Part shown: in pieces, positions 2,368-55,214 of the stretch
How positions within the stretch are numbered: the first letter of the stretch is position 1
Layout: the number at the start of each line of letters is the position of its first letter
NCBI GenBank assembly: GCA_024679065.1
Contig: JAGIQG010000009.1
Coordinates: 90,954,001-91,018,000 of the forward strand
DNA: 64,000 nucleotides
Direction: 5' to 3'
Source: Sphyrna mokarran
Lineage: Eukaryota
Notes under the pieces: model-generated
Seen by the model: the letters and a program-made list of their open reading frames with translations, nothing else
The model's database searches: none
Told to the model about the DNA's origin: nothing
Translations under genes and position numbers: made by a program

Positions 2368-3693
2368 AAAATATGTAATATACCTGAAGAAAAATTACTT
2401 TTGGACTTTGAGAAGTCAATAATTTGAACAATATTTTGTAAAACTTGGAATCTCATCATTTGATGTCCTCTCCAGAATTTGTATGTAGTATTTGTTGTGG
2501 GTTTTTAGTTTTATCTGTTTCAATGGATGAGAAAAGGGAACTTTCATTGTTAACTCATTTTAAGTATATGTTATCACAATGATTGAACAACTCCAATGAA
2601 TCTTGTTCTGAACTATGTTTTTAACCCTGCTTGAGATATACCTGGTTAAAAGCAGCGAAAGTGAGGATGGGAATCTGTGGTTTGGGCTTCATTGACTGTT
2701 CTATTGGATCTCAGATTTAAAAGGAACCAAATAGTAACTGATAAATTTCAGCAGAAATGCAATAGGGCAAGAATCAAACAGGCTGCTGTGGGTGACCAAA
2801 GGGATAGTTATCTTAGCAGAATCTCAGAAGTCCAGATGTAGATAGAACTGAGGTAAAATAAATAAAGCTGGGACTTTCTGCTTCTTTCCTGTGACGCCTG
2901 TCATGGCAGTTATTAACATAAAATATTGCCAGAGTGCGAAATTCGGGTTTATGATGTTGTAAAACCAGTTTGCAATACTGCTGTCAAGCCTTCAAATGCT
3001 TTTCCCGCTGCCTAATGTCAGGCATGCCTTTTGCATACATTTCAACATCATGCATCATTAAAAAGGGTGCATGTCAGAATCATTCTTCCAACACTGGATC
3101 AGTAGGGCTTGTCAGTGTGCAATTGTGCTGTGTTTCATAGCGCTATATAAGCGATGTGCCCTTGGTGACATGCACTTTGCTCGACCCTTTGATATTCACG
3201 TACCTATTTTGCATCATACAATGTTTGTGGCAACTCATGTTCAACAGCACATCGCCTTCAGCAAGGGCTACCTCCAAAGCTGTACCTAATAGATCAGCAA
3301 TAAGATGGGGTTCATCTTGAGTAGGCTAACAGCAAGGCCCCTGACTGAAGAGTGGGATAAGTAGCCAAAGGCATGCCAAAGGGCTAAGGCCTGTACTAGA
3401 GTTGTGGGGGATGGGGGGTGGTGGGGGGGAGGAAGGGGAGGTCGTGCCTTATGAATCTGGTAGAATTTTTTGAGGAGGTGATGAAAATGGTGGACGAAGG
3501 GCACCATTGTCTATATGGATTTCAGTAAGGCGTTTGACAAAGTCCCTCATGGGAGGTTAGTTGAGACAGTCAAGGCTCATGGAATACAAGGACAGGTAGC
3601 TAGATGGATAAGTAACTGGCTTAGTAATAGGAACTCAGTAAGAATTTAGCAACACGAATTTATAATCCAACCAATTTATTTGATAGTAAAAAA

Positions 3694-3724
3694 GCGAGCT
3701 TTCGACTCTGTGTCTTCGTCAGGC
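3694..3724 (-). ncRNA. Minimal hammerhead ribozyme motif in PLE pLTR
   Basis: gc-CUGACGA-A-gac(acaga)guc-GAAA-GC-UC-gc; core intact, stem I only 2 bp. Confidence 0.75.
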
Positions 3725-3939
3725 AAATGCAGTGTTCTGGTCTGCAATAGCACACATCAGCACAGACAGTCAGAGATTGCTGATTAGAATGCGAATCCTT
3801 ACATCTAACCTGCTATTCAAGTGTTAAAGTGGCTAACAATGTGTGTGAAGGGAATCCTGAGCATTGTTAGAGAATTGTGTATTTTCTCCAGACAGCACAG
3901 TAAGTGAGGTTTTTTGCTAACCCAGGCAAGTTACGGGGG

Positions 3940-4946
3940 TTACAGATAGTGTGTCATGAAGCCAAGATCCCTGTTAAGACCGTCCTCATGTGTGCGGAGC
4001 TTGGCTATCAGTCTCTGCTCAGCGACTCTGCGCTGTCGTGTATCACGAAAGCCCCCTTGAAGAACATTTACCCGCAGGTCGGAGGCCGAATGCCCATGAC
4101 TGCTGAAGTGTTCGCCCACAGGAAGGGAACTGTTTTGCCTGGTGATTGTTGAGCGATGCTCATTCATCCGCTGTCGTAGTGTCTGCATGGTCTCCCCAAT
4201 ATACCATGCTTCGGGACATCCTTTCTTGCAACGTATTAGATAGACAACGTTGGCCGAGTTGCAAGAGTATGTACCGTGTACCTGGTGAATGGTATCCTCA
4301 CGTTTGATGACGTCGTCCATGTCTAGGATCCGGCATGTCTTGCAGAGGTTGCTGTGGCAGGGTTGTGTGGTATTGTGGTCACTGTTCTCCTGAAGGTTGG
4401 GTAGTTTGCTGCGAACAATGATCTGTTTGAGGTTGTGCGGTTGTCTGAAAGCAAGAAGTGGGGGGGTGGGGATGGCCCTAGCGAGATGTTCATCGTCATC
4501 AATGATATGTTGAAGACTCCGGAGAAGATGTCGTAGCTTCTCCGCTGCGGGGAAGTACTGGACAACAAAGGGTACTCTGTCCACCGTGTCCCGTGTTCGT
4601 CTTCTGAGGAGGTCAGTGCGGTTTATCGTTGTGGCACGTCGGAACTGTCGATCGATGAGTCGAGCGCCATATCCTGTTCTCACGAGGGCATCCTTCAGCG
4701 TCTGGAGGTGTCTGTCACGATCCTCCTCATCTGAGCAAATTCTGTGTATACAGAGGGCTTGTCCATAGGGAATGGCTTCATTAACATGTCTAGGGTGGAA
4801 GCTGGAGAAGTGGAGCATTGTGAGGTTGTCTGTCGGTTTGCGGTACAGTGAGGTGCTGAGGTGACCGTCCTTGATGGAGATGCGTGTGTCCAAGAATGCA
4901 ACTGATTCTGGAGAATAGTCCATGGTGAGTCTGATGGTGGGATGGA
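3940..4946 (-). pseudogene. PLE ORF 3' part: RT thumb, linker and GIY-YIG endonuclease (open frame, 5'-truncated)
   Basis: FLDT..LYRKPTD..SFHP, CxxxxCxxC linker, NVVYLIRC..C..YIGET..LRQRMNEH, and GLN terminus. Confidence 0.92.
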
Positions 4947-5386
4947 GAACAGTGACCACACAACCCTGCCACAGCAACCTCTGCAAGACATGTCGGATCA
5001 TAGACATGGACGACATCATCAAACGTAAGGATACCATTCACCAGGTACACGGTACATACACTTGCAACTCGGCCAACGTTGTCTACCTAATACGTTGCAA
5101 GAAAGGATGTCCCGAAGCATGGTATATTGGGGAGACCATGCAGACACTACGACAGCGGATGAATGAGCATCGCTCAACAATCACCAGGCAAAACAGTTCC
5201 CTTCCTGTGGGCGAACACTTCAGCAGTCATGGGCATTCGGCCTCCGACCTGCGGGTAAATGTTCTTCAAGGGGGCTTTCGTGATACACGACAGTGCAGAG
5301 TCGCTGAGCAGAGACTGATAGCCAAGCTCCGCACACATGAGGACGGTCTTAACAGGGATCTTGGCTTCATGTCACACTATCTGTAA
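4947..5386 (+). pseudogene. PLE GIY-YIG endonuclease, second (inverted) copy
   Basis: Near-identical translation to the C-terminal ~145 aa of the 3940 ORF. Confidence 0.92.
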
Positions 5387-5601
5387 CCCCCGTAACTTGC
5401 CTGGGTTAGCAAAAAACCTCACTTACTGTGCTGTCTGGAGAAAATACACAATTCTCCAACAATGCTCAGGATTCCCTTCACACACATTGTTCGCCACTTT
5501 AACACTTGAGTAGCAGGTTAGATGTAAGGATTCGCATTCTAATCAGCAATCTCTGACTGTCTGTGCTGATGTGTGCTATTGCAGACCAGAACACTGCATT
5601 T

Positions 5602-5632
5602 GCCTGACGAAGACACAGAGTTGAAAGCTCGC
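5602..5632 (+). ncRNA. Minimal hammerhead ribozyme motif in PLE pLTR
   Basis: gc-CUGACGA-A-gac(acaga)guu-GAAA-GC-UC-gc. Confidence 0.72.
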
Positions 5633-6816
5633 TTTTTTACTATCAAATAAATTGGTTGGATTATAAATTCGTGTTGCTAAATTCTTACTGAGTTCTTACC
5701 ACCCCAATCCAACGCCGGCATCTGTACATCATTAGTAATAGGAGACAGAGAGTAATAGTGGAAGGGTGTTTTTCTAGCTGGAGGTGGGTCACTAGTGGTG
5801 TGCAGCAGGGCTCGGTACAGGGACCTCTTCTATTTGTAATATATATAAATGACTTGGAAGAGGGAGTAAGTGGAGTGATCAGCAAGTTTGCAGACGATAC
5901 AAAGATGGCTGGACTAGTGGATAGTGAGGAGCATTGTCAGGCGATGCAGCAGGACATAGATAGGCTGGTAGCTTGGGCAGACAGATGGCAGATGGAATTC
6001 AATCCTGATAAATGTGAGGTGATGCATTTCGGGAGAAAGAATGTAGAGGGGAGGTATATGATAAAGGGTAGACCTATTAAGAGTATAGAAACGCAGAGGG
6101 ACCTGGGGGTGCAGATGCACAAGTCTCTGAAGGTGGCAGAGCAAGTGGAGAAGGTTGTGAAGAAAGCATATGGTATGCTAGCCTTTATAGGAAGGGGTAT
6201 AGAGTACAAGAGCTGGCCTTTAATGTTGCAGTTGTATAAAACGTTGGTTAGACCTCATTTGGAATACTGCGTCCAGTTCTGGTCGCCTTACTACCGGAAG
6301 GACGTGGAGACTCTGGAGAGAGTGCAGAGGAGGTTTACCAGGATGCTGTCTGGTATGGAAGGTCTGAGTTACGAGGAGAGGTTAGGCAAATTGGGACTGT
6401 TTTCCTTAGAAAGACGTAGACTTAGAGGAGATCTAATAGAGGTGTACAAGATTATGAGGGTATAGATAGAGTAAACAGGGTTAAGCTTTTTCCTAGGATG
6501 GACTCGAATAGCACGAGGGGTCACGGGCTTAGGGTGAGAGGGGTAAGGTATAATTTGGATGCTAGAGGGAGTTTTTTCACTCCCTCTAGCATCTAGCTAG
6601 AGGGTGGTGGGGATATGGAATGCGCTGCCAAATAAAGCGGTGGAGGCAGGTACTCTGGAGTTATTTAAATAATACTTAGATGGGCACATGAACAGAATGG
6701 GAATGGAGGGGTATAGGAAACTGATTTAAAATAGGGATCATGAGCCTTGGGAGTCCCTGGGAATGTGTAAATAGATGATGATATTTATGTACTTGTTTTT
6801 ATCCAACAGGTGCTTT

Positions 6817-6935
6817 GGTCCACCTTGTTGTCTAACAAGGGGCATAGACACGATGGGTCGTGAGAGGGCTGCTCTTGGATTTTTTTCAAGAGTATCCTAG
6901 TGCTTCACATCGTTAGTGTACGCTTGACCTGGACC
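6817..6935 (+). other. Conserved structured RNA domain in CR1 3' UTR (copy A1)
   Basis: Closing stem ggtcc/ggacc, hairpin ccttgtt/aacaagg, long stem ending in ctcttgga/ttcaagag; homologues at 27637, 32628, ~47015 and ~54128. Confidence 0.7.
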
Positions 6936-6942
6936 ATTTGAT

Positions 6943-7130
6943 GGGCAACACGACAGCTCAGTGATTATCGCTGTGCTGTGCAGATACATGGATTTGAGCC
7001 TGTGTATGTGGGAGTTTGCGCATTCTCCCTGTGCTTGCGTGGGTGTTCTCCGGATGCTCCGGTTTCCTCCCACATCCCAAAGGTGTGCTCTTAGGCTAAC
7101 CAGCAAAACAAATTCTCCCTAAATTGTCTC
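6943..7130 (+). mobile_element. Decayed tRNA-head + V-domain SINE sequence embedded in CR1 3' UTR
   Basis: gggcaacacgacagctcagtga aligns to a HE1-type head; ggagtttgcgcattctccc..gctccggtttcctcccaca is the V-SINE core. Confidence 0.8.
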
Positions 7131-8639
7131 AAATTTGGTTTTTAATCCATAGATCTATAAACATAGACAGGGATCACGGGTAGGGGTAGGAACATTGGGG
7201 TGGTGGTGCAGGCTCGTTGGGCCGAAGGGCCTGTTTCCCATGCTGTTTTGTTCTTTGTTCTTTGTTCTTTGAAGTAGGGTTTGCATACTTGACTAGGCTG
7301 GTGAGGGTGTGGATGTCTTCTATACTTGAATTTAATTGCATGGGACCTGAATGGGAAGGTGGCAAACTCAGGAAGGGTTTGACTTTATATTGTTCATCTT
7401 GCCAAGACTTCTCTTGTCCCAGTGCAGGGAGGGTGAGGATAATGGTGGTCCAGTCTCAGACCATTATCAACAGGCATGGACATGATGCCACTGCATCAGT
7501 CAGAGGTTTGTGGTGGGAGGAGGGGTGTATGATCATTTTCTTGGGCGACAGTTACCAAACTCAGCCCAGGGAGGAATCTACAACCCATAAGTAGGGAAAA
7601 GGTAGTATATGGGCAATAAGAGGTCTCATGATGGAAGTGGGAAGTTGTGGGGGAGAGGACAGTGGTGGTGTCCTCTCCCCCCACAATTTCCCACTCCCAC
7701 CATGTGAGTTGTGGTGTGAGGCTTTGTAAATCACGCTGTGCCAGAGGCCTCAAGATCGATGGGAGCAAGGTCCACAAGCACATCAAAAATCACAATAGGT
7801 CGAAGATTAGAATGAAAGAATTGAGGGAAACCTCAACATCATGCTGCATAGAGTCCTTGGGAGAGATATCTGCACTCTCAAGGGAGGGGCCAAGTAGGTC
7901 TGGCATTGAGGCCTCAACACCACCTTCTTATAAGATGAAGCAATTGAACAACAAGCAAAATAAATGAGGGCAAACTCAGCTGGTGAGTTCTCTGGGGGCC
8001 TCTTGAATGATTGGTGCAATTGCTACAGAGCCGAATAAAGGGCCAACAAATAGATACGTGTATTCTTGGATGAGAAAAGATTTGCAACTGAGTCAGATTA
8101 TGAGTTCTTCATTCAGAATGTAGAAAATCAGGAAGGCTACCACTGAAGAAACCTCATTATTAATGTGCATCTTTAATATTAGAGCAGTAATGGATTACTT
8201 TTGTCACAGCTTCCAAATTCCCCAGAGCAAGAAGAAAGTCAGGAGCAACTTGTGACAAGCCTCACATCATTCTGCTGGCAAGTTCACACAAGAAGGCTCA
8301 GCTCCTCCCCACCTGCAAACCGTTCTCCACTGATAATCTTGGTTCCTAACCAAACATGTTACACAAAGTGTTTACTCTCAACTAAATGGAAAGGTAAACT
8401 TGAAATGTGCCTGCACTGGATTTCAAGGCTGAATATTTGCTGACAGTAGTACTAAGCTCTTTAACCCAGTGAGTTAATAGTTGTCATTGGGAGAAATAGG
8501 ACCGTTAGAGATTCATGCTGACTCATGCTTTCTCATGTATGTTGCAGAGAGAAGACCACGACTAAGATGGATGTCTGTATAACTGCATGTAAGCAGGTCA
8601 GAGGCGCGGACGAGCACTCAACAACTCTGTGTGAACCAG

Positions 8640-10030
8640 TTGACAGGGGTTTTTGCAGATATCTTTGTTCTATTGTTATGCCAATCTGAGGTCCCTATTT
8701 GGTTCAAGAAATCTGTTTCCATCATCCCTGTATGAAAGAAAAGCCAAGCAGCATGCCTTAATGACTACACGCCTGATGGCTCTGACACCGATCATTATGA
8801 AGTTCTTTGAAAGATTAGTCATGATACAAATCAATTCCGGCCTCCCAGACTGCTTGGATCAACTAACGTTCACCTGTTGCCGCAGCAGCAACAGATTCCT
8901 TCTCCTTGGCTCTATGCTCAACCCTGAAACACCTCCACCTCTCCATTTCTCCCCATGAATATCCATGTCAGACTCCAGCTCAGCCTTCAACACCATTATT
9001 CCCAAAGAACTTATCTCCAAACTCTGTGACCTGGGCCTTGGCACCTCCCTCTGTAACTGGATTCTGAACTTTCTAACTTACAGACCACAATCAGAAAGGA
9101 TAGGCATCAACATCTCTTCCACAATCATCCTTGTGTGTGCCTCACAAGGCTGAGTCCTCAGCCCTCTACTAGTCACCTTATGCACCTATGACTGTGCGGC
9201 CAAATTCCCCTCGAATTTGATTTTCAAGTTTGCTGACAACACCAGTGAGTCAGATCTCAAACAATGATGAGACAGAGTACAGGAATGAGATTGAGAATTT
9301 GGTGAACTGGTGGAGCAATAATAATTTCTCCCTCAATGTCAACAAAACAAAGGAGATTGTCATTGACTTCAGGAAGCATAAAGAAGAATATGTCCCTGTC
9401 TACATCAACAGGAGTGAAGTAGAAAAGTACAAGAGCTTCAAGTTTTCAGGTCTTCAGATCACCAACAATCTGTCCTGGTCCCCTCTTGCTGAACTATAGT
9501 TAAGAAAGCTTACCAATGCCTTTACTTTCTCGGAAGACTAAGGAAATTTGGCACGACTCTCACCAACTTTTACAGATACATCGTAGAAAACATCCTTTCT
9601 GGTTGTATCATAGCTTGGTATGGCTCCTGCTCTGCCCGAGATGCAAGGGTCTTCAAATGGTGGTGAGTGCAGCCCAATCCATCATGCAAACCAGCCTCCC
9701 ATTCGCTGACTCTGTCTACATTCCCACTGCCTCAGCAAAGCAGCCAGCATAATTAAGGATCCCATGCACCATGGACATTCTCTCTTCCATTTTCTTCCTT
9801 CGGGGAAAAGATACAAAAATCTGAGGTCATGTGCCAAGCAACTCAAGAACAGCTTCTTCTCTGCTGCTTTCAGATTTTTGAATGGACTTACCTCGCATTA
9901 AGTTGATCTTTCTCTACACCCTCGCTATGACTATAACACTACATTCTGCACCCTGTTCTTTCTTTCTCTATGAATGGTATCTTTTGTCTGTACAGCACGC
10001 AAGAAGAATACTTTTCACTGTATGATAATA
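8640..10030 (+). mobile_element. Rex1/Babar LINE, decayed, 5'-truncated
   Basis: [38 protein letters not shown] and LNVNKTKEIVIDFRK motifs; aatca-type tail. Confidence 0.88.
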
Positions 10031-10034
10031 CATG

Positions 10035-11155
10035 TAATAATCAAGTCAATACCCGAATAACAAGGACATGTCAAATTTCTATTTATTGACTACTGCTCAG
10101 CCTTCAACACCATTATTCTCTCAAATTCATCTCCAAACTCTGTTGCCTGAGGCTCGGTTCCTCCTTCTGTGACTGGATCTTTGACTTCCTAACCCACAGT
10201 AAGAGTGTGCAACAACACCTCCTCCACAATAATTATCAACACTGGTGCTCCACAAGGCTGATTCTCAGCCCCTTACTATATTTCTTATATACCGATGATT
10301 CCAATGATTATATTACCAAATTCCCCTCCAACTCGATTTTCAAGTTTGCTGATGACACCACCGTAGTGGGTCTGATCTCAAACAGTGATGAGACATAGCA
10401 CAGGAAAGAGATAGAGAATCTAGTGAGCTACTGCAATGGCAATAATCTCTCCCTCAATATCAACAAACCAAAGAAGATTGTCATCGACTTCACAAAGCAT
10501 AGTGGAGGGCATGCCTCTGTGTACATCAATGGGGATGAAGTAGGAATGGTTGAGAGCTTTAAGGTTCTAGGTGTCCAGATCACCAACAACTGTCCAGTCC
10601 CTCCATGTTGACACTATAGTTAAGAAAGCCCACAAATGCATCTACTTTTTCAAAAGACTATGGAAATTTAGCATAACTGCTATGACTCTCACCAGTTTTT
10701 ATAGATACATCATAAAAAATCTTTTCTGGATGTACCACAGCTTGGTGTGGCTTCTGCTCTATCCAAGACTGTAAGAAATTATAAAAGGTTGTGAACAAAG
10801 CCCATTCCATCACTCAAACCAGCCTCTAACTCATTGACGTTGTCTAAATTTCCCTCTGCCTTGTAAAAGCAGCAAGCATAATCAAGGACCCCAAGCACCC
10901 TGGACATTCTCTCTTCCACCTTCTTCCAGCAGGAAAAGGATACAAAATTTGGAGGTCACATACCAACCAACTCAAGAACAGCTTCTTCCTTGCTGTCATC
11001 AGGCTTTTGAATAGACCTACCTCGCATTAAGTGGATCTTTCTGTGCACCTTACCTGCACACTTTCTTTTTCTATGAACAGTATGCTTTATATAATGTCAA
11101 AAAAATATTTTTCACCGTATACTAATACATGTGACAATAATAAATCAAATCAAGT
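10035..11155 (+). mobile_element. Rex1/Babar LINE, second decayed copy
   Basis: LSPLLYFLYT and KFADDTTVVGLI; tail aataataaatcaaatcaa. Confidence 0.88.
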
Positions 11156-13914: not shown

Positions 13915-14432
13915 ACATAGAACATGTAGAACATTGAACATTACAGCACAGTGCAGGCCCTTCAGCCCTCCAGTATTGTGCCAAGCTTTGCCTAATCCCT
14001 AGATCAAGCTATCCCCTCCCTATAATTCTGCTGTGCTCCATATGCCTATCCAATAACCGCTTAAAAGTTCTAACTGTGTCCAACTCCACTATCACAGCAG
14101 GCAGTCTCTTTCAACCCCAACCGCTCTCTGAGTGAAGAATCTATCTTGGATATCACTCCTATATCTCCCACCATGAACCTTATAGTTATGTCCCCCAGTA
14201 ACAACTACATCTACCACAGGAAATAGTCTCTGCATGTCCACTCTATCAATCCCTCTCATCATCTTATAAACCTCTATTAAGCCACCTTTCATCCTCCTCT
14301 GCTCCAAAGAGAAAAGCCATGATGTAGAGATGCCGGTGTTGGACTGGGGTAAACACAGTGTTGTCAGACTTCTTACTGTGTTTACCCCAAAGAGAAAAGC
14401 CCCAGATCCCTCAACCTTTCCTCATAAGACCA
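13915..14432 (-). mobile_element. CR1 3' fragment
   Basis: GLIEVYKMMRG..RFFTQR; tail (catagaa)n at ~13915. Confidence 0.9.
14319..14386. mobile_element. 68-bp palindromic mini-PLE insertion with 15-bp TSD
   Basis: TSD ccaaagagaaaagcc at 14304-14318 and 14387-14401; content matches the pLTR end at 5675-5732 in both orientations. Confidence 0.88.
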
Positions 14433-24711: not shown

Positions 24712-25950
24712 CATAAGATAATAAGATGTAGGAGCAGGTCATTTGGCCTTCTGACCCTGATCCCTCATTCAGTAAGATCATGCCTGATTGCTTGTGGCTT
24801 TAACTCCTTTCCCGCCTGCCCTTCATAATCCATTATTCACATGTAGATCAAAACTCTGTCTAACTTGGCCTTGAATATATCAATGACCTAGTCTCATTTA
24901 CTTTCTCGTATAAGTAATTCCAAAGACCAGAGAGGAGAAATTCATTCTCATCTCTATTTTAAATGGCCTTAAATGGGAGACCACATATTTTTAAATATTG
25001 CCCTCTAGGTCTAAATTTCCTCACAAGCAAAAACATCCTGTTAGCACCTACTCTGTCAATCCCCTCAAATCTTTTATATTCCACTAAGATCACCTTTCAT
25101 TACCACATTCATTAGCAGATGGAACTCATTATCATAGGAAGTAATTGATGCCAAAACACTGAATGTGTTCAAAAGGCAGCTGGATATAGCACTTGGGGTG
25201 AATAGGATCAAAGGTTATGGGGAGAAGGCAGGATTAGACTATTGAGTTGGACGATCAGCCAAGCTCATGAGAAATGGCACAGCAGACTTGAAGGGGCAAA
25301 TGGATTCCTCCTGCTCCAATCTTCTATGTTTCTATGTTTCATTCTTTTGAACTGCAACAAGTATCCTTTGAGGATAAGGGATAAACATTTAGAACTGAGG
25401 TGAGTAGAAATTTCTTCATGCAGATGGTGGTGAATGCACGGAGTTCATTATCACAGAAAGTAGTTGAGGCCAAAACATTGTCTGAATTCAGGAAGAAATT
25501 ATATATAGTTCTTGGGATTGAAGGGATCAAGGGATATGGGGGAAAGGAGGAATCAGAATGTTAATTCAATGATCAGCCATGATCAAAATGAATGGTGGAG
25601 CAGGTTTGAAGGGCCGAATGGCTTACTCCTGCTTCTAGTTTCTACATATTAGTCCAACCTGCTCAATCATTCCTTATAAGACAATCCTTTCATCCCAGGA
25701 ACCAGCGTAGTGAATCCTCTCTGAATTGAGCAAATATATCCTTTATCCATCCTTGCAGTAAAGGGCAACATTCCATTTACATTGCTAATTACTTTCTGTA
25801 CCTTAAAGTTAACTTTTTGAGCTTCATGTACAATGGCAGACAGATTTTCTGTATCACACGCTTCTGCAGTCTATTTCTATCCTTTCCACTAGACATATTC
25901 CCATCTACTAAACAGTCCATTCACTTAAGCAATATCCCTTTGCAGACTCT
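24712..25950. mobile_element. Nest of old CR1 3' fragments (minus-strand host; plus-strand inserts ~25135-25340 and ~25370-25650)
   Basis: Tails cataagataataag, ctatgtttctatg and ctagtttcta; FF.Q.VVN-type motifs. Confidence 0.75.
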
Positions 25951-26029: not shown

Positions 26030-26500
26030 TCCATTCATGGGATATGGGCATCATTAGCTAGGATAGCACTTTTGCCCAACCCTAATTGTCTATGAGAAGG
26101 TAGTGATGAGCTGCCTTCTTGAACTGCTGCGGTCTATCTGGGCACAACCTCAGACTGAAGAGCCAATCCTTTAAACAGAGATGAGGAGGAATTTCTTCAG
26201 CCAGAGAATGGTGAATCTGTGGATCTCTTTGCTGCAGAAGGCTGTGGAGACCAGGTCATTATGTGTCTTTAAGATAGAGATAGATAGGTCCTTGATTTTT
26301 AAAGGGATCAGAATTATGGGGAAAAGGGAGGAGAATGGGGATGAAAAAAGTATCAGCCATAATTGAATGGTGGAGCAGACTTGATGGGCCAAGTGGCCTA
26401 ATTCTGCTCCAATGTCTTATGGTCTTATGGTGTAGGTACACCCAAAATATTGTTAAGGAGGGAGCTCCAGGATTTTACCCAGCAACAGTGAAGAAATCAG
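26030..26500. mobile_element. 3' end of a second CR1/L2-group LINE lineage (minus) with a CR1 tail inserted at ~26140-26430 (plus)
   Basis: 26030-26120 matches 49500-49590; the insert encodes MRRNFFSQRMVNLW and ends gtcttatggtcttat. Confidence 0.7.
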
Positions 26501-26807: not shown

Positions 26808-28092
26808 CTGGTAGCTTGGGCAGACAAATGGCAGATGGAATTCAATCCTGATAAATGTGAGGTGATGCATTTTGGGAGAAAGAATGTAGGGGGAGGTATA
26901 TGATAAAGGGTAGACTTATTAAGAGTATAGAAATGCAGAGGGACTTGGTGCAGGTGAACAAGTCTCTGAAGGTGGCAGAGCAAGTGGAGAAGGTTGTGAA
27001 GAAAGCATATAGTATGTTAGCCTTCATAGGAAGGGGTGTAGAGTACAAGAGCTGGCCTTTAATGTTGCAGTTGTATAAAACGCTGGTTAGACCTCATTTG
27101 GAACACTGCGTCCAGTTCTGGTCGCCCTACTACCGGAAGGACGTGGAAATTCTGGAGAGAGTGCAGAGGAGGTTTACCAGGATTCTGCCTGGTATGGAAG
27201 GTCTGAGTTACGAGGAGAGATTAGGCAAATTGGGACTGTTTTCCTTAGAAAGACATAGACTTAGAGGAGATCTAATAGAGGTGTACAAGATTATGAAGGG
27301 GATAGATAGCTAGTAAACAGGGTTAAGCTTTTTCCTAGGATGGACTCGAATAGCACGAGGGGTCACGGTGAGGGGGGGTAAGGTATAATTTGGGTGCTAG
27401 AGGGAGTTTTTTCACACAGAGAGTGGTGGGGGTATGGAATGCGCTGCCAAGTAAAGTGGTGGAGGCAGGTACTCTGGAGTTATTTAAGAAATACTTAGAT
27501 GGGCACATGAACAGAATGGGAATGGAGGGGTATAGAAAACTGATTTAAAATAGGGATCATGAGCCTTGGGAGTCCCTGGGAAGTGTGTAAATAGATGATA
27601 ATATTGATGTACTTGTTTTTATCCTACAGGTGCTTTGGTCCACCTTGTTGTCTAACAAGGGGGCATACACGCGATGGGTTGTGAGAGGGCTGCTCTTGGA
27701 TTTTTTTCGAGAGTATCCTAGTGCTTCACGTTGTTAGTGTACGCTTGACCTGGACCATTTGATGGGCAACACGACAGCTCAGTGACTATCGCTGTGCTGT
27801 GCAGATACATGGATTTGGGCCTGTGTCTGTGGGAGTTTGCGCATTCTCCCCGTGCTTGCGTGGGTTTTCTCCGGGCGCTCCGGTTTCTTCCCACATCCCA
27901 AAGATGTGCTCTTAGGCTAATTGGCAAAACAAATTCTCCCTAAATTGCCTCAAATTTGGTTTTTAATCCATAGATCTATAAACATGGACAGGGATCGCGT
28001 GTAGAAGTGGGAACATCGGGGTGGCGGCGCAGGCTCGTTGGGCCGAAGGGCCTGTTTCCCGTGCTGTTTTGTTCTTTGTTCTTTGTTCTTTG
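26808..28092 (+). mobile_element. CR1, long-3'UTR lineage (copy A2); structured domain 27637-27756, then V-SINE part
   Basis: Collinear with 5965-7271. Confidence 0.95.
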
Positions 28093-30351: not shown

Positions 30352-32344
30352 TTACCTTCAAATAAATCGGTTGGATTTAAAATTGGTTTTGCTAGATTCT
30401 TACTGAGTTCTTACTACCCCAGTCCAACGCCGGCATCTCTACATCATGACTACTATCGACACCGCATACTGCCGGATCCAAGTGGAGAGGATCTCCAAGA
30501 GGATTGCACAAATCGACCCAGACATCAAGTTTCTACAGAGATGCAAGAAAGCAGACAGGATACCAAAGGGACTACAGATCACGAACCCACTCAGGTCAAC
30601 CTATAACACAGACTACACTGAGAGACTTTGCCGTCGCACCTCTCTCACACTCCTCAATCACCTCATACACCAGCTCTATAGCAAACGCCGCACCCTGGAA
30701 AGTAAAATGGAATACATATTCTCAACTTGCGCTCAGGACGCAGACCAGCTGCGAAACTTTGCCAAGCATATAAGATGAAGAAACTACACTATTTACATGC
30801 ACACCAAGAACAGGAAACTTGAAAAACTCGGCATCACCACCAGCAACAACCAAGGCACCACAGTACCTTGGCACCACAGTAGAAAACAGCACTACCGCAG
30901 GGAGGTCCATTGTTAACTTGTCGGACTACACATTTCAATCAGAGAAATCGAAGTTCTCAGCTGAGGGCTCAATTTCTGTCCTACCACCAAAATGGACCCC
31001 ATCAGTCTCGCAGCGGACACAGAGGAATTCATCAGGCAAATGAGACTATGTGAGTTCTTCCACAAACCCCAAGAGGCCAATAGTGAACTCAATGAGACAG
31101 CTAATGAACCAGAACAGCCGACAGAGGGATCCGCAGTGCAGCAACCGAAGAGGAATGAATCCAATTGGACTCCTCCGGAAGGCCGCTGCCCCTGACTGGA
31201 CATGTATGCCCAAGCCATCAGGAGGTGCGTGAACACCAGATTCATCAACCATACTTACAAGACAGTCCTGAACATCACCCAAGTCAAAGCAAGGCCATCC
31301 GTGCTCTCAAGACCAACTGCAATATTGTCATCAAACCAGCAGACAAAGGAGGCGCCACCGTCATACTGAACAGAATGGATTACTGTGAAGAAGTGTACCG
31401 ACAACTAAACAATGTGAAACACTACAGACAGTTACCAGCAGATCCGACCAAAGAACACACTCGTCAACTCAACACTCTGATCAAAACTTTGATCCGGACC
31501 TTCAGAACACCCTCCAGGCCCTCATTCCACGTACTCCCTGCATTGGAGATCTCTACTGCCTCCCAAAGATACACAAGGCAAACATACCCGGCCGTCCTAA
31601 AGTATCGGGCAATGGGACCCTGTGTGAGAACCTCTCCGGCTATATCGAGGGCATCCTGAAACCAATTGTACAAAGAACCCCCAGCTTTTGTCTTGACATT
31701 ACAGACTTCTTACAGAAACTCAGCACACATGGAGCATTTGAACCAGGGACACTCCTTGTCACAATGGATGTCTCGGCACTCTACACCAACATCCCCCACG
31801 ACGATGATATTGCTGCAACTGCCTCAGTACTCAATGCCAACAACTGCCAGTTTCCGGATGCAATTTTACAACTCATCCGCTTCATCTTGGACCACAATGA
31901 CTTCACCTTCAACAATCAGCTTTTCATCCAGACACACGGAACAGTGTTCCTTTTTGCTTTTTCTGCCCCCTTCATCCTGTGTGAATTAGTCACTCTACTA
32001 CAGAAAAAGGAGCTGGCTGTTTGGTGAATATCTGATAAATAGTTAAATTCTGTTTCAATCCTAAGGTCTAAAATGATGTAAACTAAGGTAGTAAAATATA
32101 TAAAAAGGAAGGTAAATAAATATAAGTAATTAATTAAAACACACTAAGAATGGCAGAACAGGTAATATATCAAGGCCACAACATGTACGAGCTCCTGGAT
32201 GCCAGTGTGATCAAGAGCAAACACATGTCTACAGTAAGTGTTTGCAGTTCAAGGAGCTTTGGATCAGTCATTGGAGGCTGATCTGCAGACATGATGACAC
32301 AACAAGGAAGGGAAAAGTACCTGGAAGCTCTGTACTAAGAGACA

Positions 32345-33551
32345 ACAAAGAACAAAGAACAACACAGCACGGGAAACAGGCCCTTCGGCCCAACAAGCCT
32401 GCGCCGCCATCCTAACATCTTAATGACATATAGAGACCAATATAGGGACAATTTGTTACCCAATCAGCCTAAGAGCACATTTTTGGATGTGGGAGGAAAC
32501 CGGAGCACCCGGAGAAAACCCACGCAACCACGGGGAGAACGCGCAAACTCCCGCAGACACAGGCCCAAATCCATGTGTCTGCACAGCAACAGCGATAGTC
32601 TCTGAGCTGTCATGTTGCCCATCTGATGGTCCAGTTTAAGCATACACTAACGACATGACGCACTAGGCCACTCCTGAAGTAACATCCAGGAGCAGCCCTC
32701 GCACGACCTGCCGAATGCATGCACCTTGTTGGTCAACAAGGTGGACCGAACAGCCTGTGGAAACAATTAAAGCATTTAAACAGTCCTCCTATATCCCTCT
32801 ATCTGCAGACCGCTCATGTGGCTGTCCAGGAGACCCTTAAACAACCCTAGCGTGCCTGCTCCCACCACCTTACTCAGTAGTGCATTCCACACCCCCACTA
32901 CCCTCTGTGTGAAAAAATGCCCTCTAATATTAGTCTTATACATAGCCCCCTTCACCCTAAGGCCGTGACCCCTCGTTCTATCAGAATCTAATGGTGGAAA
33001 AAGCTTACCACCATTTACTCTATCTATACCCCTCATTATCTTATATACCTCTAATAGATCCCCTCTCAGCCGACGTCTTTCAAGGGAAAACAACCCCAGT
33101 GTTTTCAATCTTTCCTCGTAAGACAGCCCTTCCATACCAGGCAGCATCCTGGTACATCTCCTCTGCACTCTCTCCAGGGCCTCTACATCCTTCCTGTAGT
33201 ACGGCGACCAGAACTGGACGCAGTACTCCAGATGAGGCCTAACCAACGTTCTATACACTTGCAACATCAAACTCCTACTCTTGTATTCTATACCCCTTCC
33301 TATGAAGGCTAACATACCATACACTTTCTTCATCACTTTTTCCACCTGTACTGACACCTTCAGAGACTTGTGAACCTGCACCCCCAGGTCTCTCTGCGTC
33401 TCTATACTCCGGATAGTTTTACCTTTTATCCTATAACTCCCCTCTACATTATTCCGGCCAAAATGCATCACCTCGCATTTATCCGGATTAAATTCCATTT
33501 GCCATCTATCTGCTCAATCTACCAGCCTATCTAGATAGGCAGATAGATAGG
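32345..33551 (-). mobile_element. CR1, long-3'UTR lineage, divergent subfamily (copy B); structured domain 32628-32747
   Basis: ORF 32776-33498; TSD aagagaca at 32337-32344 and 33552-33559. Confidence 0.95.
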
Positions 33552-33966
33552 AAGAGACAGTCATACCATTTAGGATGGTGTCTTCTGATCTGGTCTATGA
33601 TCAGGTACAGGACAGCATAAGACAGGTAAGGGAACTCAGACAGCAGGAATGCAGAAGCCTCAGCCTTTTCAATTGTCCAGTAGCTTGAAGGATCTCTCAG
33701 CTTGTTTGGATGGGAGTATGGTTTGCAGGGTGGATAAACAAACTGATTATGGCACCATGTTGAAAGCTATTTAAGTGTGTGTGTGTGTAGGGATGGGGGG
33801 AGGTGGGGAGAAGGAATGTAGTGATAGTAAGGGACATTATAGTGAGGGGGATTAATACTGTTCTCCACAGCAAAGAGTGAAAGATCAGATATTTAAATTG
33901 CCTACCTGGTGCCACATTCAGGGCATCTGCCCAAGGTTGGAGGGAACTCTCAGTGGGATACCTGCC

Positions 33967-34910: not shown

Positions 34911-36944
34911 TATTCTGTCCCTGTGCGTCAATCACACACTGCCCTTGCAAGATCTGGCTATCCACTCCTGGCCTTTGCAAGTACAAGTAAGTGCTACCCA
35001 TAGAATGCACTTGTGCATACATGCCACCCCAGCCCTGCCCTCGGGGACCAAGCCCACATGCACATGCATGTTGCCACCCACAGCCTGCGCTCGTGCCACC
35101 CGCAGTCTGCCCTTGCGTGTATATGTAACTCTACGCATTGCCCGTGTGTGTGCTTGCCACCGTACGCCATGCCTTTGTGCACATGTGTGCCACTGTACGC
35201 ACTGCCTTCATGTCCGCACTCCACCCATGCCCTGCCGTCACACACATGCTCCACCCGCCTTTGCACATGTGTTCCAACCAACGCCCTGCCCTCATGCACA
35301 TACACCACACTACATCCTGTCTCATCTACATGCACCACCCTATGCCCTCCACTCACCTGTGTGCCCAACACTCTGCCCTCACACGCATGCTCCACCCTAC
35401 CCTATGCTGTTATGCATGTGCCCCAACTGACATACTGTTCTCATGTGCACTCCACTCTATTCTGCCCTCATGTGCATACAGCACACAATGCCCTCCCTTC
35501 ACGAACATGGTCCACCACACACCCTGTCCTCATGCGAGTGTCACCCTACACACTGCCATCACACACATTTGCCACCTTATGCCCTGCCATTGCACGTGCT
35601 CCATCTTATTCTGTGCCCTTGCAGGTGCACTCCACCCTATGCCCTGCCCTTTCCTGCGTGCTCCACCCCTACACCCTGACCTCATGTATGTGCCACACAA
35701 TGCCCTGCTCTCACGCACACGTGTTACACAATGCCCTGTGCTTGCATGCGCACACCCCCATTCCCAGCTGTCGTGCGTATTCCACTCTAAGCTTGTCCTT
35801 GCATGTGTGCTCCACCCTAGGCCCTGCCCTCGTATGCACATTCCACACTATGTCCTGCTCTTACGTGCCCACTCAACCTTACTCCTTGTCCTCCATCCTA
35901 CACCCTGCTCTCGTGTGCGCTCCACCCTATGCCCTGCCCATATGCATGTGCCACAACGCTGTGCCCTCATGCACGTGTGTTACACAATGCCCTATCCTTG
36001 CATGTGCCAATCCATGCTCTGCCCTCATCAACACAATCCACTGTAAGCCCTATCTTCACATGCGCACTCCACTCTACACCCTACCCTTGTATGTACACTC
36101 TACACTACACCTTGCCCTCATGTAACTATTCAACCCTACTTGCTGACCTCCACCCTACACCCTGCCCTCAGATGCGAGGTCTACCTATGCCCAGCTCTTG
36201 TATGCGAGCTCTACCCTACATCCTGCCCTGACATGTGCACTTCACCCTATGCCTTATCCTTACGCCTGTGCTCCACCCTATACCCTGCTCTTGCGCACGC
36301 GCGCAACACCTAAAACCCTGCTCTTGTGTGTGCGTTCTACCCTAAGCCCCGAACTCGTACGTGCTATATCCTTTGCCCTGGTCTTCCATGTGCACTCAAC
36401 CCTATTCACTGCCATCCACCATATGCCTTGCCCTCACGTGCACACTCCACCCTACACCCTGTTCTTGCGTGCAAGCTCCACGCTCTGCATGTCCTCATGT
36501 GCATGCTCTACACTATGCCCTGTCCTCACACACATGCTCCATTGTATGCCCAGCCCTCATGTGCATGCACACCACACAACACCCTGCCCTCATGTGCGTG
36601 CACCACCCACATCCTGCCCTGGTATGCATACCACCCTACACTCTGTCCTCTTGCACACACTCCACCCTATGCAATGCCCTCATGCATATGTGCCACTCTT
36701 CACGCTGCCCTTGCCCAGGTATGTTCCACACTGCGCCCAGTCATTGCACTCACCTTTTGCCATGCCCTCAAAAGTATGCTCTGCCCTATACCCTACCCAC
36801 TGTGCGCTCCAACCTACACGCTGCCCTTGCGCCTCACGATGCCCTGCCCTTGTGCATGCGTGGCACACAGTGCCCTGCCTTCACACAGGTCACACTACAC
36901 CCTGCACCTATGCACGTGCCACTCTATAGCCTGCACTCACACAT

Positions 36945-37226
36945 GCTAGCACGAGGGGACACAGCTTTAAATTAAGGGGTATGAGTTATAGGACGGATAT
37001 CAGAGGTAGGTTCTTTACCCAAAGAGTGATTAGGGAGTGGAATGCCCTGCCTGCAGCTGTTGTAGATGCGCCAAGTGTGGTGGCATTTAAGAGGTTAATT
37101 GATAAGTATATGGAAGAGAAGGGAATGGTTTAGTTTGGAGGGGCATTGCTTTTTATTTTGGTCGGCACAACATCGAAGGCCGAAGGGCCTGTTCTGTGCT
37201 GTAATGTTCTATGTTCTATGTTCTAT
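36945..37226 (+). mobile_element. CR1 3' end inserted in the array
   Basis: Near-identical to 14637-14917. Confidence 0.93.
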
Positions 37227-39310
37227 GCATTACCCAAGGCCCTGTACTTGTGGGCACCACTGTATGTCCTGCTCTCATGCGCATGCTCCACTTTACGCTC
37301 TGTCTTTGCATGCATGTTCCACTCTATACCCTGCCCGCATATGTGCACTCCACCTTATGCCCTGCCCTCGTCACCTGCTCAACCCTACTCCTTGTCCTCC
37401 ACCCTACACCCTGCCCTCATGTGTACACTCCACCCTATACACCCTGCCCTCGCACACAAGCTCTACTCTACACCCTACCCTCATGTGTGCTCCACTCTAT
37501 GCCCTGCTCTCCCGTGTGTGCACCATCTAATGCTCTATCCTCGCATGCTCAACCCTGCTCCCTGCCCTCCAATTTTGAGCTCACCCTCACCCTTACCTTA
37601 TGCCCTGCCTTCACATGCACGTTCCAACTTCCATTACATGCATGCTCCACCCTATGCCCTGCCTTTGTGCACGAGCTACACACTACGCATTCCCTTCATG
37701 CATGAATTACACCCTATGCCCTTTCTACATGCAAGGGTTCCACCCTGTGCCCTGCCCTCACATGCATGAACTACACAACGCTATGCCCTCATGCATGAGC
37801 GCTACCCTTCACCCATCCTCACATATGCCATCCTACATTCTGCCGTGTGCTGCTCTCATGCTTCATCCTAAGCCCAGTCCTTTAGTGCACCACTGTACAC
37901 CTGCACTCACACATGCATTCCACACTACTTTGTGCACACTCCACCCTATGGCCTGCCCTTGCGCATGTGCCCCATCTGACATCCTGCCCTCATGCATGTG
38001 CTCTACCTCATGCCCTGTCCTTGTGCGCATACAGCACACTACATGCTGCCCTATGCCCTGTCCTCATGCATGCCCTCTAACCTGTGCCCTGACCTTGTGC
38101 ATGCGCTCCAACTGACACCCTGCCCAATGTGAACACTCCACCCTATGCCCTGCCCTTGTGCACGTGCCCCACTGTACGCCTTGTTTCTGTACACACATTC
38201 CAGAATATGCTCTGCCCTCACGTGCATGCACCACACAATGCCCTGCCCTAACGTGCACGCTCATCCATGTCCTGTCCTCGTGCATGCGCTGCCCTATACA
38301 CAGCCCTTATGTGGGTGTGGCACACAATGCCCTGCCCTTATGCGCACGCTCCACTCTAAGCCCTGTCCTCACGTGCGTGCTCCACCCTATACCCTGCCTT
38401 TGTATGCAAGCTCTACACTATGCCCTATCCTCGTGTGCCCACTCAACCCTACTGCCTGTCCTCCATCCAATACTCTGCTCTTAAGCGTGTGCTTCACCTT
38501 CCTCTCTGTTCTTGCATGCGAATTCTTGCCTTCACCTTGCCTTTGTGTGCGCGTCCACCTTATGCCTTATCCTCAATTGCATGCTCCACTCTATACCCTG
38601 CTCTTACACGCATGCAACATACAACACCCTGTGCTTACCTGTGCATGCAACTCCATGCCCTTTAGTCACACACGCCACCTTATGTCCTGCCTTGTATGCA
38701 ATCCACTCTACGGCCTGTCTTTGCATGTGTTCCATCCTACCGTGCTCTTGTGTGCACGCTCTACCCTACGCCCTGCCTTCACATGCATTCTTGACTCTAA
38801 GCGCTGACCTCATGTGTGCTACAACCTTCGCCCTGTTCTCCCGTGCGCGCTCAACCCTATGCTTGCCCTCCACCCTACACCCTGTCCTCACATATGCACT
38901 CCACTATATGCCCTGCCCTTGCAGGTGTGCACCACATAACGCCCTGTCCTCAAACATGCGTGATACTCTGTGCCCTGCCATTGCATGTATGTGCTACCCA
39001 ATGCCCTGCACTTGCATGCACGTGCTACCCTATGCCTTGCACTTGCACATGTGCGAGCCACCCTGTGCCCTGTCCTAGTATTCACCCTATGTCCTGTCCT
39101 AGGACTCCACTTTATGTCCTGCCCTTGCCACGCTCTTGATTCTAAGTCCTGAACTTGTGCGCGTCTTACACCTTTCACTCTGCTCTCCTACGTATGCTCA
39201 AACCTGCTCCCTGTCCTCCACCTTATATCTTGCCCTCGCGCATACACTCCACCTATGCCCTGTCCTTGTGCATGAGCTCCACCCTATACCCTGCCCTCAT
39301 GTACGCAGTC

Positions 39311-40885
39311 TAGAACATAGAACATAGAACATAGACCATTACAGCACAGAACAGGCCCTTCGGCCTTCGATGTTGTGCCGACCAAAATAAAAAGCAATGC
39401 CCCTCCAAAACTAAACCATTCCCTTCTCTTCCATATACTTATCAATTAACCTCTTAAACGCCACCAAACTTGGCGCATCTACAACAGCTGCAGGCAGGGC
39501 ATTCCACTCCCTAATCACTCTTTCAGTAAAGAACCTACCTCTGATATCCGCCCTATAACTCATACCCCTTAATTTAAAGCTGTGTCCCCTCGTGCTAGCT
39601 TTCTCCATACTAGGAAAAAGGCTATCACTGTCCACCCTATCTAAACCTCTAATCATCTTATATGCTTCAATAAGATCCCCTCTTAGCCGCCTCCTTTCTA
39701 ACGAAAACAACCTCAAATCCTTCAACCTCTCTGCATAGGACCTGCCCTCCATACCAGGCAACATCCTGGTAAACCTCCTCTGTACCCTCTCCAATGCCTC
39801 CACATCTTTCTTATAATGTGGCGACCAGAACTGCACACAATACTCCAAGTGCGGCCGCACTAGCGTTTTGTACAGTTGCAACATGATGCTGCGGCTCCTA
39901 AATTCAATCCCCCTACCAATAAAAGCTAAGACTCCATATGCCTTCTTAACAACTTATCCACTTGACTGCCTACTTTCAGGGATCTATTGACACATACACC
40001 AAGATCCTTCTGTTCCTCAACACTACTAAGAGCCCTACTATTAGCCCTATACTCTACAAATTTATTGTTCCTGCCAAAGTGCATTACCTCACACTTTTCC
40101 ACATTAAACTCCATTTGCCACCTCTCGGCCCAGCTCTGCACTTGTCCAAGTCACTCTGTAAACTAAAACACCCCTCTTCACTATCTACCACACCACCAAC
40201 TTTAGTATCATCTGCAAATTTACTGATCCATCCCTCAATACCCTCATCCAGATCATTTATAAAAAATTACAAACAGCAGGGGCCCCAAAACAGACCCCTG
40301 AGGCACACCACTCGTCACCGAACTCCAGGATGAATATCTCCCATCAACCACCACCCTCTGTCTTCTATCTGCCAGCCAATTCCTAATCCAATTAGCTAAA
40401 TCACTCTCTATTCCACACATCTGCATTTTCTGTAGAAGTCTTCCATGGGCCACCTTATCAAACGCCGTACTAAAGTCCATATATACTACATCAACCGCCT
40501 TACCCCCATCCACCTCTCTGGTCACTTTCTCAAAAAACTCAATGAGGTTAGTAAGGCATGACCTACCCTTCACGAAACCATGCTGAATGTCCCCAATCAA
40601 TTCATTTCTTTCTAAATAACTATAAATCCTATCCCTAATAATTCTCTCCAATACCTTGCCCACAACAGAAGTAAGACTCACTGGCCTATAATTCCCTGGA
40701 AGGTCTCTCTTCCCCTTCTTAAACAATGGGACCACATTCGCTATCCTCAAGTCCTCCGGAACCACACCCGTAACCAACGAGGACCTGAAGATCAGAGCCA
40801 GAGGCTCTGCAATCTCCTCTCTTGCCTCCCAGAGAATCCTAGGGTAAATCCCGTCCGGCCCAGGGGACTTATCCAACTTCAAACC
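39311..40885 (-). mobile_element. CR1 RT fragment inserted in the array
   Basis: ORFs 40253-40897, 39926-40141 and 39411-39884; (tagaaca)n tail. Confidence 0.96.
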
Positions 40886-50790: not shown

Positions 50791-51484
50791 ACCATATATA
50801 TACATATCCTTATAATCGGTACTCTCTAGACTGATTCTACTTACATCCTGGTGTGGGTGATACTGTACTCAGTCCCACTTGGGAACCAGTCCCTTCTGCT
50901 ACATCCATCTCAAGTTTTTATGGATATAGATTGATTTTAGTTTTCTTCCAGGTTATTTCAACTCTTCCATTTCAATAAGTCTCGTGTATTAACTTTACTG
51001 TCACAGCGATAAACTATTCTAATCCCATGCTATTTCATTATTAACATTAACAGGTATGCATTAATAACATTCTTATTCCCAAATTTATCATCAAGTCCCT
51101 GACATTGAAGATTGAGTGGTCTGGAGGTCATACATCCACCACAGTGCTTCAGTGAAGAACACAAAACAGTTGTGTGGTCAGAAGGCTGCTGAAGGACTTC
51201 TCATTCCATGACAGCATGCTACAGATTGGAAACAGATCAGGAGGCACAGTCTGGGTGCTGTTGGGGCACCAGAAAGTGTGAGGTATGCAAATTAATTGAT
51301 GCTATATTGCTTTGTCTGTTTTCTTTATTTGTTATGATGTGGCTAGGAGACCAAGTCAAACTTTGGGTTAGCTAACGAAATTTACAACTGTGTTTTTGTC
51401 TAATTGGATCAGAGAAAAAATTCTTGGAACTGGCTAGCCTGGAAATTTAAAATTTTGTCTTACGTTGAAGCCTGTTTGTTATGA

Positions 51485-53880: not shown

Positions 53881-54115
53881 TGAACATTTAGATACCAAAT
53901 GGGTCTTTTTTTTTGAGCCAGGTCTCTGTTATCAACTTCACATCCCTTTGGAGTACAGAAAAGCCCCTCGACCCTGTCAAATCAGAGGAAGCCCCATGCC
54001 ACCCTCTTAGAGGAAAGCATCCATCCCAAAAACATTGGTTTTTGTATTGATGGCTTTTTGATGTAGAGAAATTTATATAATTAACAAAAATTCTTTCCTC
54101 TGCCCTTAATATCCT

Positions 54116-54574
54116 ACAGGTACTTCAGTCCGCCTTGTCTAACAAGGGGCATACAAGCGATGGGTCATGAGAGGGTTGCACTTAGATTTTTCGAGAGTAT
54201 CCTAGTGCTTCATGTCGTTAGTGTACCTTGACCAGGACTATTTGATGGGCAACATGACAGCTCAGTGACTATCGCTGTGCTGTGCAGATATGTGGATTTG
54301 AGCCTGTGTCTGTGAGAGTTTGCGCATTCTCCCTGTGCTTGCGTGGGTTTTCTCTGGGTGCTCCAGTTTCCTCCCACATCCTAAAGATGTGCTCTTAGGC
54401 TGATTGGCAAAACAAATTCTACCTAAATTGTCTCAAATTTGGTTCTAATGCATAGATCTATAAACATAGATAGGGATGACAGGGATCATGAGTAGAAGTG
54501 GGATCATTGAGATGGCGGCGCGGGCTTGTTGGGCCAAAGGGCCTGTTTTCTGTGCTGTTTTTTTCTTTGTTCTT
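54116..54574 (+). mobile_element. Solo copy (D) of the CR1 3'UTR module
   Basis: Aligns to 27626-28092; probable TSD ttaatatYct at 54106-54115 and 54575-54584. Confidence 0.92.
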
Positions 54575-55214
54575 TTAATATTCTGTGGCTTGTTGTCAAA
54601 TTGTGCTAGATAACTCTCCTGTGAAGCACCTTGAGATATTTTACTATGCCAAAGGATACTACATAATTTGTTCTTGTCATTTGGAATCCACCAATGCCGG
54701 ACTCTTGAGCACCTCCAAATTATAATTGCTCCACAATTGGTAGCTGTGCCTTCAATCACTCCCAGTCTCTAGAATTATCTCTTCCCTTAAATTCATTCCT
54801 TCAAACATTCTTGTGTGACCAAACTATTCCTTTAGTGTGTCAAAATTTATTTGATAATTCTTCTCCTTGGAATATTTTGCTCTGTCGAAGATGCTATTTA
54901 AATGCATTAGAGATTTTTTTTTTAGATTCACTTTTAACTAACATAGTTCAAACTATATCCTCAGTTTATATCACTGCATTATAAAGAAGGAGATATGGAG
55001 CACAATTCCTTCACAGTGACAATCAGTATTGGATTGTCACTCCATAGCCACTTACCTGCACGAAATTTATTCAGTGCCTGTCTTGCTCTACCTTGCTGGC
55101 TCACATTGCACAAGATCCAGGCAGTGCATCATGTCCCCTGGTCCAGCATTGCAGTCTAAAAGAATTGGACTAAAGGAAGACACATATCTTTTTCACAGCC
55201 ATAAGTTGGCATAG

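Follow-up and report, generated by a model that had tools for sequence, protein, structure and literature searches.

A CR1 LINE lineage of Sphyrna mokarran carries a conserved tRNA-like head and V-domain in its 3' untranslated region

In the genome of Sphyrna mokarran a V-domain lies between ORF2 and the 3' terminal repeats of several CR1 copies, which raises the question of whether a LINE has taken up part of a SINE and, if so, what keeps it there. V-SINEs, among them HE1 of sharks and rays with its partner LINE HER1, and the borrowing of LINE tails by SINEs are already known (PMC3747384, PMC4824008), and V-SINEs are distributed from cnidarians to vertebrates (PMC4824008). Why SINE central domains have been conserved for more than 500 million years is, according to PMC4824008 and PMC11481361, unknown; suggested roles include a part in transcription, stabilisation of the RNA, the exchange of tails and an advantage to the host. 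Here we analysed a 64-kb stretch of contig JAGIQG010000009.1, referred to below as the window.

Self-comparison of the window and module searches revealed five copies (A to E) of a common 3' unit, consisting in all of them of a 134-nt structured domain, a 58-nt head, a V-domain, a post-V spacer and a stem-loop tail with (GTTCTTT)n (Table 1). In A, B and C this unit is joined to a CR1 ORF2, the stop codon being followed by a linker and then by the modules in the above order; the distance from stop codon to unit is ~80 nt in A and B and ~20 nt in C. Copies D and E consist of the 3' unit only, with no ORF2. An earlier note on this DNA had reported three CR1 copies with an identical order after the ORF2 end. 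The order was borne out by the searches and the three copies are real, although D and E have to be added to the count. Every copy is 5'-truncated and broken. Copies A and B inserted independently of each other: no similarity extends past the tail, the flanks differ and B is truncated within the ORF2 of A. The span 5732-7271 given previously for copy A holds for its 3' part, but the copy as a whole starts near 3433, and an insertion divides it. All copy counts, trees and rates given here refer to this one window, that is, to five copies in three lineages, one of which is without ORF2. The chimera of a CR1 with a V-domain 3' UTR is real.

Table 1. Positions of the V-bearing CR1 copies and of the comparison elements in the window.
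Feature	Positions	Strand	Remarks
Copy A, upstream ORF2 piece (RT region)	3433..3631	+	identified by tblastn, sequence and junction; cut off from the remainder by a nested insertion
Penelope-like insertion (GIY-YIG) nested in copy A	3632..5731		~11-bp duplication; outside the chimera
Copy A, 3' part of CR1 ORF2	5732..6729	+	RVT_1; broken by frameshifts; family stop codon 6727-6729
Copy A, AT-rich linker	6730..6808	+	~60 nt shorter in C
Copy A, structured domain	6809..6941	+	short hairpin and long hairpin in a closing stem; z -3.4
Copy A, remodelled tRNA-like head	6942..6999	+	A-box-like site kept, 18 nt around B box deleted
Copy A, V-domain	7000..7094	+	5' half predicted to pair with head; Vhc hairpin ~7038-7076
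Copy A, post-V spacer	7095..7199	+	neutral-rate divergence between lineages
Copy A, CR1-type 3' stem-loop and (GTTCTTT)n	7200..7271	+	
Copy B	26808..28092	+	subfamily of A; 5'-truncated; structured domain 27629-27762, head 27763-27820, V-domain 27821-27915, tail 28021-28092
Copy C, second subfamily	32345..33551	-	ORF2 to 32776, structured domain 32755-32622, head 32621-32563, V-domain 32562-32469
Copy E, read as basal form	46682..~47170	-	T-arm/B-box segment kept; ~50 nt of A/B-type linker; no ORF2
Free V-SINE S1, decayed, with A and B boxes	51477-51790	+	comparison; internal deletion in 5' half of V
Free lone SINE head S2	52177-52255	+	comparison
Copy D, A/B subfamily	54113..54575	+	truncation 6 nt upstream of structured domain

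The ORF2 of copy A contains an RVT_1 domain, and in the ORF2 trees the V-bearing copies are placed among sibling copies of CR1 type. For copy C the best-listed matches of ORF2 were to RT proteins of sharks, rays, birds and turtles. Among the matches listed (120 of 4968), the named relatives of highest identity were those of sharks and rays, with Stegostoma at 69%, Mustelus at 63% and Chiloscyllium at 61%, and the proteins of birds and turtles were 36-53% identical, in keeping with an elasmobranch host.

The GIY-YIG Penelope-like element nested in copy A was found to hit the identical few bases of CR1 ORF2 at 3632, 28786 and ~62260-62285, in three CR1 families, and another CR1 copy, the fourth, contains a related Penelope-like end at 14320-14390, accompanied by a duplication of 15 bp. 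This pattern suggests a target preference inside CR1, on which a literature search found nothing. The window also contains, at 35100-46100, a long stretch of degenerate purine/pyrimidine repeats that matches itself weakly at many points and is interrupted by CR1 copies, as well as a repeat family at 8649-11150 and 56009-58170 with several segments 71-87% identical; one ORF of this family (10159-10581) weakly matched CR1 RT in tblastn.

The V-domain was identified on several grounds. The BivaV-SINE2 primer, listed in the supplementary table of PMC4824008, matched copies A, B, C and D with 1, 3, 1 and 2 mismatches, respectively, and none of 100 shuffles; no match was found in copy E, which has a deletion at the primer site. 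A 39-nt hairpin with an internal loop is present and corresponds to the Vhc as described in PMC4758252. With the primer site in four of the five copies, this hairpin and the identity to a V-SINE outside the window (L001, see below), the copies contain what defines a V-domain, namely ~80 bp with a Vhc. The head of copy E is collinear with those of the free SINEs of the window, 44 of 72 positions being identical to S1 (p=0.0012) and 42 of 74 to S2 (p=0.0002). The heads of A-D have lost 18 nt over the T-arm and B box, a deletion common to these four copies, and for this reason match S1 and S2 less well (p=0.03-0.24); E retains the segment. ARAGORN and Rfam found no tRNA in the window, and the assignment of the head rests on its likeness to SINE heads, by which it is tRNA-SINE-derived. 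A B box with at most one mismatch is absent from all five heads and the A-box-like site has two mismatches; the A and B boxes of an internal Pol III promoter are thus not found together in the LINE-borne heads. Nor do the copies have the form of non-autonomous SINE units, since none of the five starts at the head and three are joined to ORF2.

Scanning of GTDB contigs with a V word resulted in a single match, L001 (1150-1478, minus strand), a V-SINE of vertebrate type that includes a (TG)n tract and lies on a contig of a bacterial metagenome-assembled genome, apparently a contamination from a vertebrate host. A scan of the same contigs for the remodelled head gave no matches. Compared to the LINE-borne modules, L001 is 54-60% identical in the head and 70-76% in the V-domain outside the query word (head versus V, p=0.04-0.27); its B box is also non-canonical, and it represents a single genomic copy. 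Against free V-SINEs, the identity of the LINE-borne heads is thus ~60% (54-61% against free canonical SINEs) and that of the V-domain ~75%.

Head and V-domain are predicted to fold together. In the prediction, V contributes its 5' half to pairing with the 5' strand and the middle of the head, which produces a four-way junction; the Vhc hairpin comes next. The z scores of the head+V fold are -2.1, -3.3 and -2.8 in A, B and C; the fold is not significant in D (z -1.3). In the fold predicted for E, the segment deleted from the other copies forms the apical part of one arm. L001, folded alone, adopts the same predicted topology (z -2.4). When the pairs of L001 were mapped onto A-D, five double changes were counted in each (null 1.3-1.9; p=0.006-0.022), or six when B or C served as the reference (p=0.002 and 0.0007), and all but one of the double changes lie outside the L001 query word. 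On E there were four (p=0.31), and covariation among the five window copies alone was not significant. From this comparison of predicted folds with one outside copy, a head:V four-way junction is predicted, with support from covariation, to be common to the LINE-borne modules of A-D and the free V-SINE.

In order to compare rates at the level of lineages, only sites at which A equals B were used, scored for a difference in C. Such differences were found at 71 of 221 third codon positions and at a similar proportion of the post-V spacer (20/53, p=0.52). They were far fewer, relative to third positions, in the head (3/56, p=1e-5), the V-domain (4/87, p=5e-8), the Vhc within it (0/34, p=7e-6) and the tail (3/47, p=1e-4), and amounted to 26 of 127 in the structured domain. 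The V-domain therefore does not diverge at the neutral rate, which the earlier note had named as the outcome that would speak against its retention, and head and V are together under constraint. Differences between A and B are even over the three codon positions (12, 9 and 12 of 229) and therefore reflect decay after insertion; this decay is of the same size as the entire difference between B and C in head and V. Between C and B the codon positions differ at 40, 34 and 77 of 230 sites and four-fold sites at 21 of 60.

The same comparison alters what had been said of the head. The earlier note described a decayed tRNA-like head with eroded A and B boxes next to a well-kept V core, and supposed that V alone was retained. 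It is correct that the head derives, on its likeness, from a tRNA-SINE and is changed relative to free V-SINEs, that its B-box part is deleted in A-D, and that V is conserved. The head, however, is not now decaying: between B and C it is as conserved as V (3/58 versus 6/94, Fisher p=1), and retention of V alone is not upheld.

Low divergence of head and V might have arisen in ways other than selection. A single swap of the 3' end is excluded, because a neutrally evolving spacer lies between two conserved blocks, and homogenisation of the head by free canonical SINEs is excluded by an identity of only 54-61%. A further alternative accepts a single capture and explains the low divergence by later exchange, through gene conversion or double template switching, between the masters of the A/B and C subfamilies, head+V being a neutral passenger or a recombination hub. 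The V-domain has indeed been proposed to aid exchange of 3' ends (PMC4758252), and lineage-unique changes are unevenly spread, with 9, 12 and 10 of 115 sites in the structured domain of ABD, C and E against 2, 6 and 17 of 135 in head+V (p=0.015). Such an exchange would need a tract bounded on both sides, the structured domain and the post-V spacer staying divergent. Moreover, the E-unique rates are alike in the two regions (10/115 versus 17/135, p=0.41), the differences of E in head+V are far below the 32-38% of neutral sites, and the compensatory changes relative to L001 are left unexplained. We regard exchange as an unlikely source of the conservation, albeit the strongest of the competing explanations, and prefer purifying selection.

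The structured domain preceding the head was found in these five copies only within the 64-kb window. Its predicted fold beats all of 200 shuffles in A, B and C (z -3.4, -4.2 and -6.3) and is no better than shuffles in D and E, which are older (z 0.0 and +0.5). Of the pairs predicted in B, four are broken in C against 10.8 expected (p=0.001), and p=0.07 was obtained from C to B; double changes were in excess from C to A (p=0.02), with none for D or E. Rfam gave nothing for the whole window at the gathering threshold, and for the domains of B, C and E up to E=10 it returned no 5S rRNA or ribozyme family and nothing meaningful. Readings of the domain as 5S, SRP, ribozyme or SECIS, for which there was no meaningful Rfam match to E=10, were set aside, and a stretch in copy E that we took to be 5S-like found no confirmation. 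The 5' end of the E domain resembles one sibling CR1 tail (I, p=0.0004) and that of A another (L, p=0.009); the remaining 33 of 35 pairs were not significant, and a profile of nine sibling tails detected none of the five domain starts. The resemblance in E may mark the original end of the LINE. Exactly at the 5' edge of the domain, A-D carry a pyrimidine tract followed by CAG/G, similar to a 3' splice acceptor and absent in E; its sites at 6790-6810, 27610-27630 and 32755-32775 (minus strand) have been kept though the linker diverged.

It is conceivable that the 3' unit is a free composite SINE, in which a new 5' module replaced the lost B box as in the 5S-fused DeuSINEs, and which was then captured by the LINE and perhaps still exchanges with it. 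Copies D and E, having no ORF2 and both starting near the 5' edge of the structured domain, could be taken for such SINEs, and there is a precedent for a module 5' of a tRNA head combined with loss of the 3' part of the head (PMC4758252). However, D includes 6 nt and E ~50 nt of the LINE linker (in E, homologous to the A/B linker, p=0.006), and as they start within it, at different points, they look like short 5'-truncated LINE copies rather than a free SINE. In addition, the domain belongs to no Rfam family, has no A/B box pair at its start, and contains a T7 run in A and B (T5 in D) that would stop Pol III. A free composite SINE is about as improbable as exchange, if slightly more so, and a unit assembled within the LINE is preferred.

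A profile of the nine sibling tails matched all five copies (22.7-32.3 bits), showing that they end in a CR1 stem-loop with terminal repeat. The tail of the free V-SINE S1 had no match to the profile and shares only 28 of 50 positions with the LINE-borne tails. Being of the sibling-CR1 type and unlike that of S1, the tail may be the LINE's own. The earlier suggestion that a whole V-SINE, including its tail, was absorbed is not supported, given this tail and the missing B-box part of the head in A-D. None of the modules occurs in the nine sibling CR1 3' ends that were inspected in the window, each of which has a short UTR. A further tail type occurs in three old CR1 3' end fragments lying close together at 25126-25644 and 26170-26421.

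In an ORF2 tree of eight rows, from which four short or long-branch rows were left out, A, B and C fall on one side of a branch separating them from the short-UTR CR1 families of the window (support 100/99); with all 12 rows the support for A+B+C decreases to 85/90. ORF2 and UTR group the copies alike, and E, keeping the longer head, is read as the basal form. Together with the one common junction and the one 18-nt deletion common to A-D, the tree supports a single capture before the split of the subfamilies, as proposed previously, the V-bearing type mapping to one group among the window copies. The proposed direction, from SINE to LINE, is likewise supported, because V-SINEs extend from cnidarians to vertebrates and the nine sibling 3' ends are short. 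The opposite course, a V-domain born in a CR1 3' UTR and later taken by SINEs like the Ceph-domain from RTE UTRs, has the general precedent that SINE bodies can derive from LINE UTRs (Kojima 2018, PMC5786205). It is very improbable here given that V follows a tRNA-like head in the UTR, that V-SINEs greatly exceed this CR1 clade in age and breadth of distribution, and that sibling CR1 families are without V.

Target-site duplications (TSDs) bear on how the unit moved. Copy C is flanked by an 8-bp TSD (32337-32344 and 33552-33559) that encloses both ORF2 and UTR, and copy D by one of 7 bp; in 3000 random pairs of 20x20 nt, matches of these lengths occurred by chance in 0.5% and 1.7%, respectively. 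No TSD was found around A, B or E, so that two of the five copies have one; an 8-nt candidate for E was not accepted, being 13 nt away from the tail. The single TSD around the whole unit, previously ascribed to the copy at 26808-28092, thus exists for that at 32345-33551 instead. The conclusion that the chimera moved as one RNA stands, for copy C, on this TSD and on the repeated independent copies. At the 5' junction of C (33526-33551), extra sequence with a short palindrome lies between the ORF2 homology and the TSD. The reading with no chimeric master, in which V-SINEs inserted independently beside CR1 fragments or one segment was duplicated, can point to the abundance of both elements in the window and to the missing TSDs of A and B, but is effectively refuted within the window and hardly credible as a whole: the junction and the non-SINE domain are the same in all copies, in none of the five was a TSD or a further tail detected that would separate ORF2 from the head, the TSD of C surrounds ORF2 together with the UTR, the A-B similarity stops at the tail with differing flanks, and ORF2 and UTR agree in grouping the copies.

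The following course of events would account for these observations. One master CR1 of a cartilaginous fish would have gained the V-SINE head and V between its ORF2 stop codon and 3' stem-loop, most simply through insertion of a V-SINE, itself equipped with a CR1 tail that was compatible, into or next to the 3' end of a LINE copy, or through template switching that joined the two. A read-through RNA would have become the new master, and the chimeric unit then moved as one RNA. The Pol III promoter would no longer have been needed and the B-box segment was deleted, while the predicted RNA fold, the head:V four-way junction and the Vhc hairpin, would have been retained, purifying selection on active masters keeping the head+V block nearly unchanged. 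The constraint suggests that the module may help the LINE. Most likely the block would act in cis at a post-transcriptional stage: beside the tail recognised by the RT it would form a scaffold that binds protein or resists nucleases, and it might raise the stability of the RNA or its chance of being reverse transcribed. The proteins of stringent LINEs bind the tail stem-loop (PMC4176376). We consider this account as a whole, from single capture through one-RNA mobility and promoter loss to a selected fold acting in cis, fairly probable. A more general form of it, in which the conserved unit of V-SINEs is the head:V junction plus Vhc with a role independent of Pol III, which CR1 would have captured, stripped of its promoter, extended by a second long hairpin domain and kept under selection, is more tentative, and we hold it to be possible rather than probable.

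Among known systems, HE1/HER1 is similar in its tRNA-derived head, V with Vhc, CR1-type tail, order of modules and host group. By description it differs in that here the modules lie in an ORF2-bearing LINE, the B-box segment is deleted, a 134-nt domain lies upstream, and no (TG)n tract follows V in the shark LINE copies. The elasmobranch CR1 siblings share ORF2 with RT, a 3' stem-loop, a terminal repeat of 7-8 nt and 5' truncation, but their 3' UTRs measure ~60-120 nt compared to ~430-540 nt in the V-bearing copies. BovB elements, with SINE-derived 5' ends, are also LINEs with SINE-related sequence, located at the 5' end and not in the 3' UTR. DeuSINEs (5S upstream of the tRNA head), pectinoid MESC and LP-SINEs likewise combine a new 5' module with loss of the 3' part of the head (PMC4758252), but remain non-autonomous SINEs, whereas here LINE ORF2 and a structured domain lie upstream. 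Ingi-3_AC and R4-1_ADi are LINEs with SINE-related sequence, Ceph/RTE-like, in the 5' rather than the 3' UTR (PMC5786205), and their accessible description shows no tRNA head with a constrained domain. The accessible part of the same survey, which compares LINEs and SINEs in Repbase and describes LINE-derived SINE bodies, contains no V-bearing LINE, and a 2026 survey of CR1 (PMC13343379) does not treat 3' UTR content in its accessible part. Our literature search, with most subscription papers outside its reach, brought up no description of a CR1 whose UTR contains a V-domain; a Repbase or Dfam consensus may exist.

Annotation of shark repeats will split copies of this kind into a CR1 and a separate SINE. 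That head and V are constrained within a LINE from which the B box has been lost speaks against a role of the V-domain confined to Pol III and against a benefit to the host from single loci, and points instead to an RNA structure acting in cis. If this is true, the chimeric CR1 would be a natural experiment separating the RNA function of the V-domain from SINE transcription, in which the predicted pairings define exact mutations for testing.
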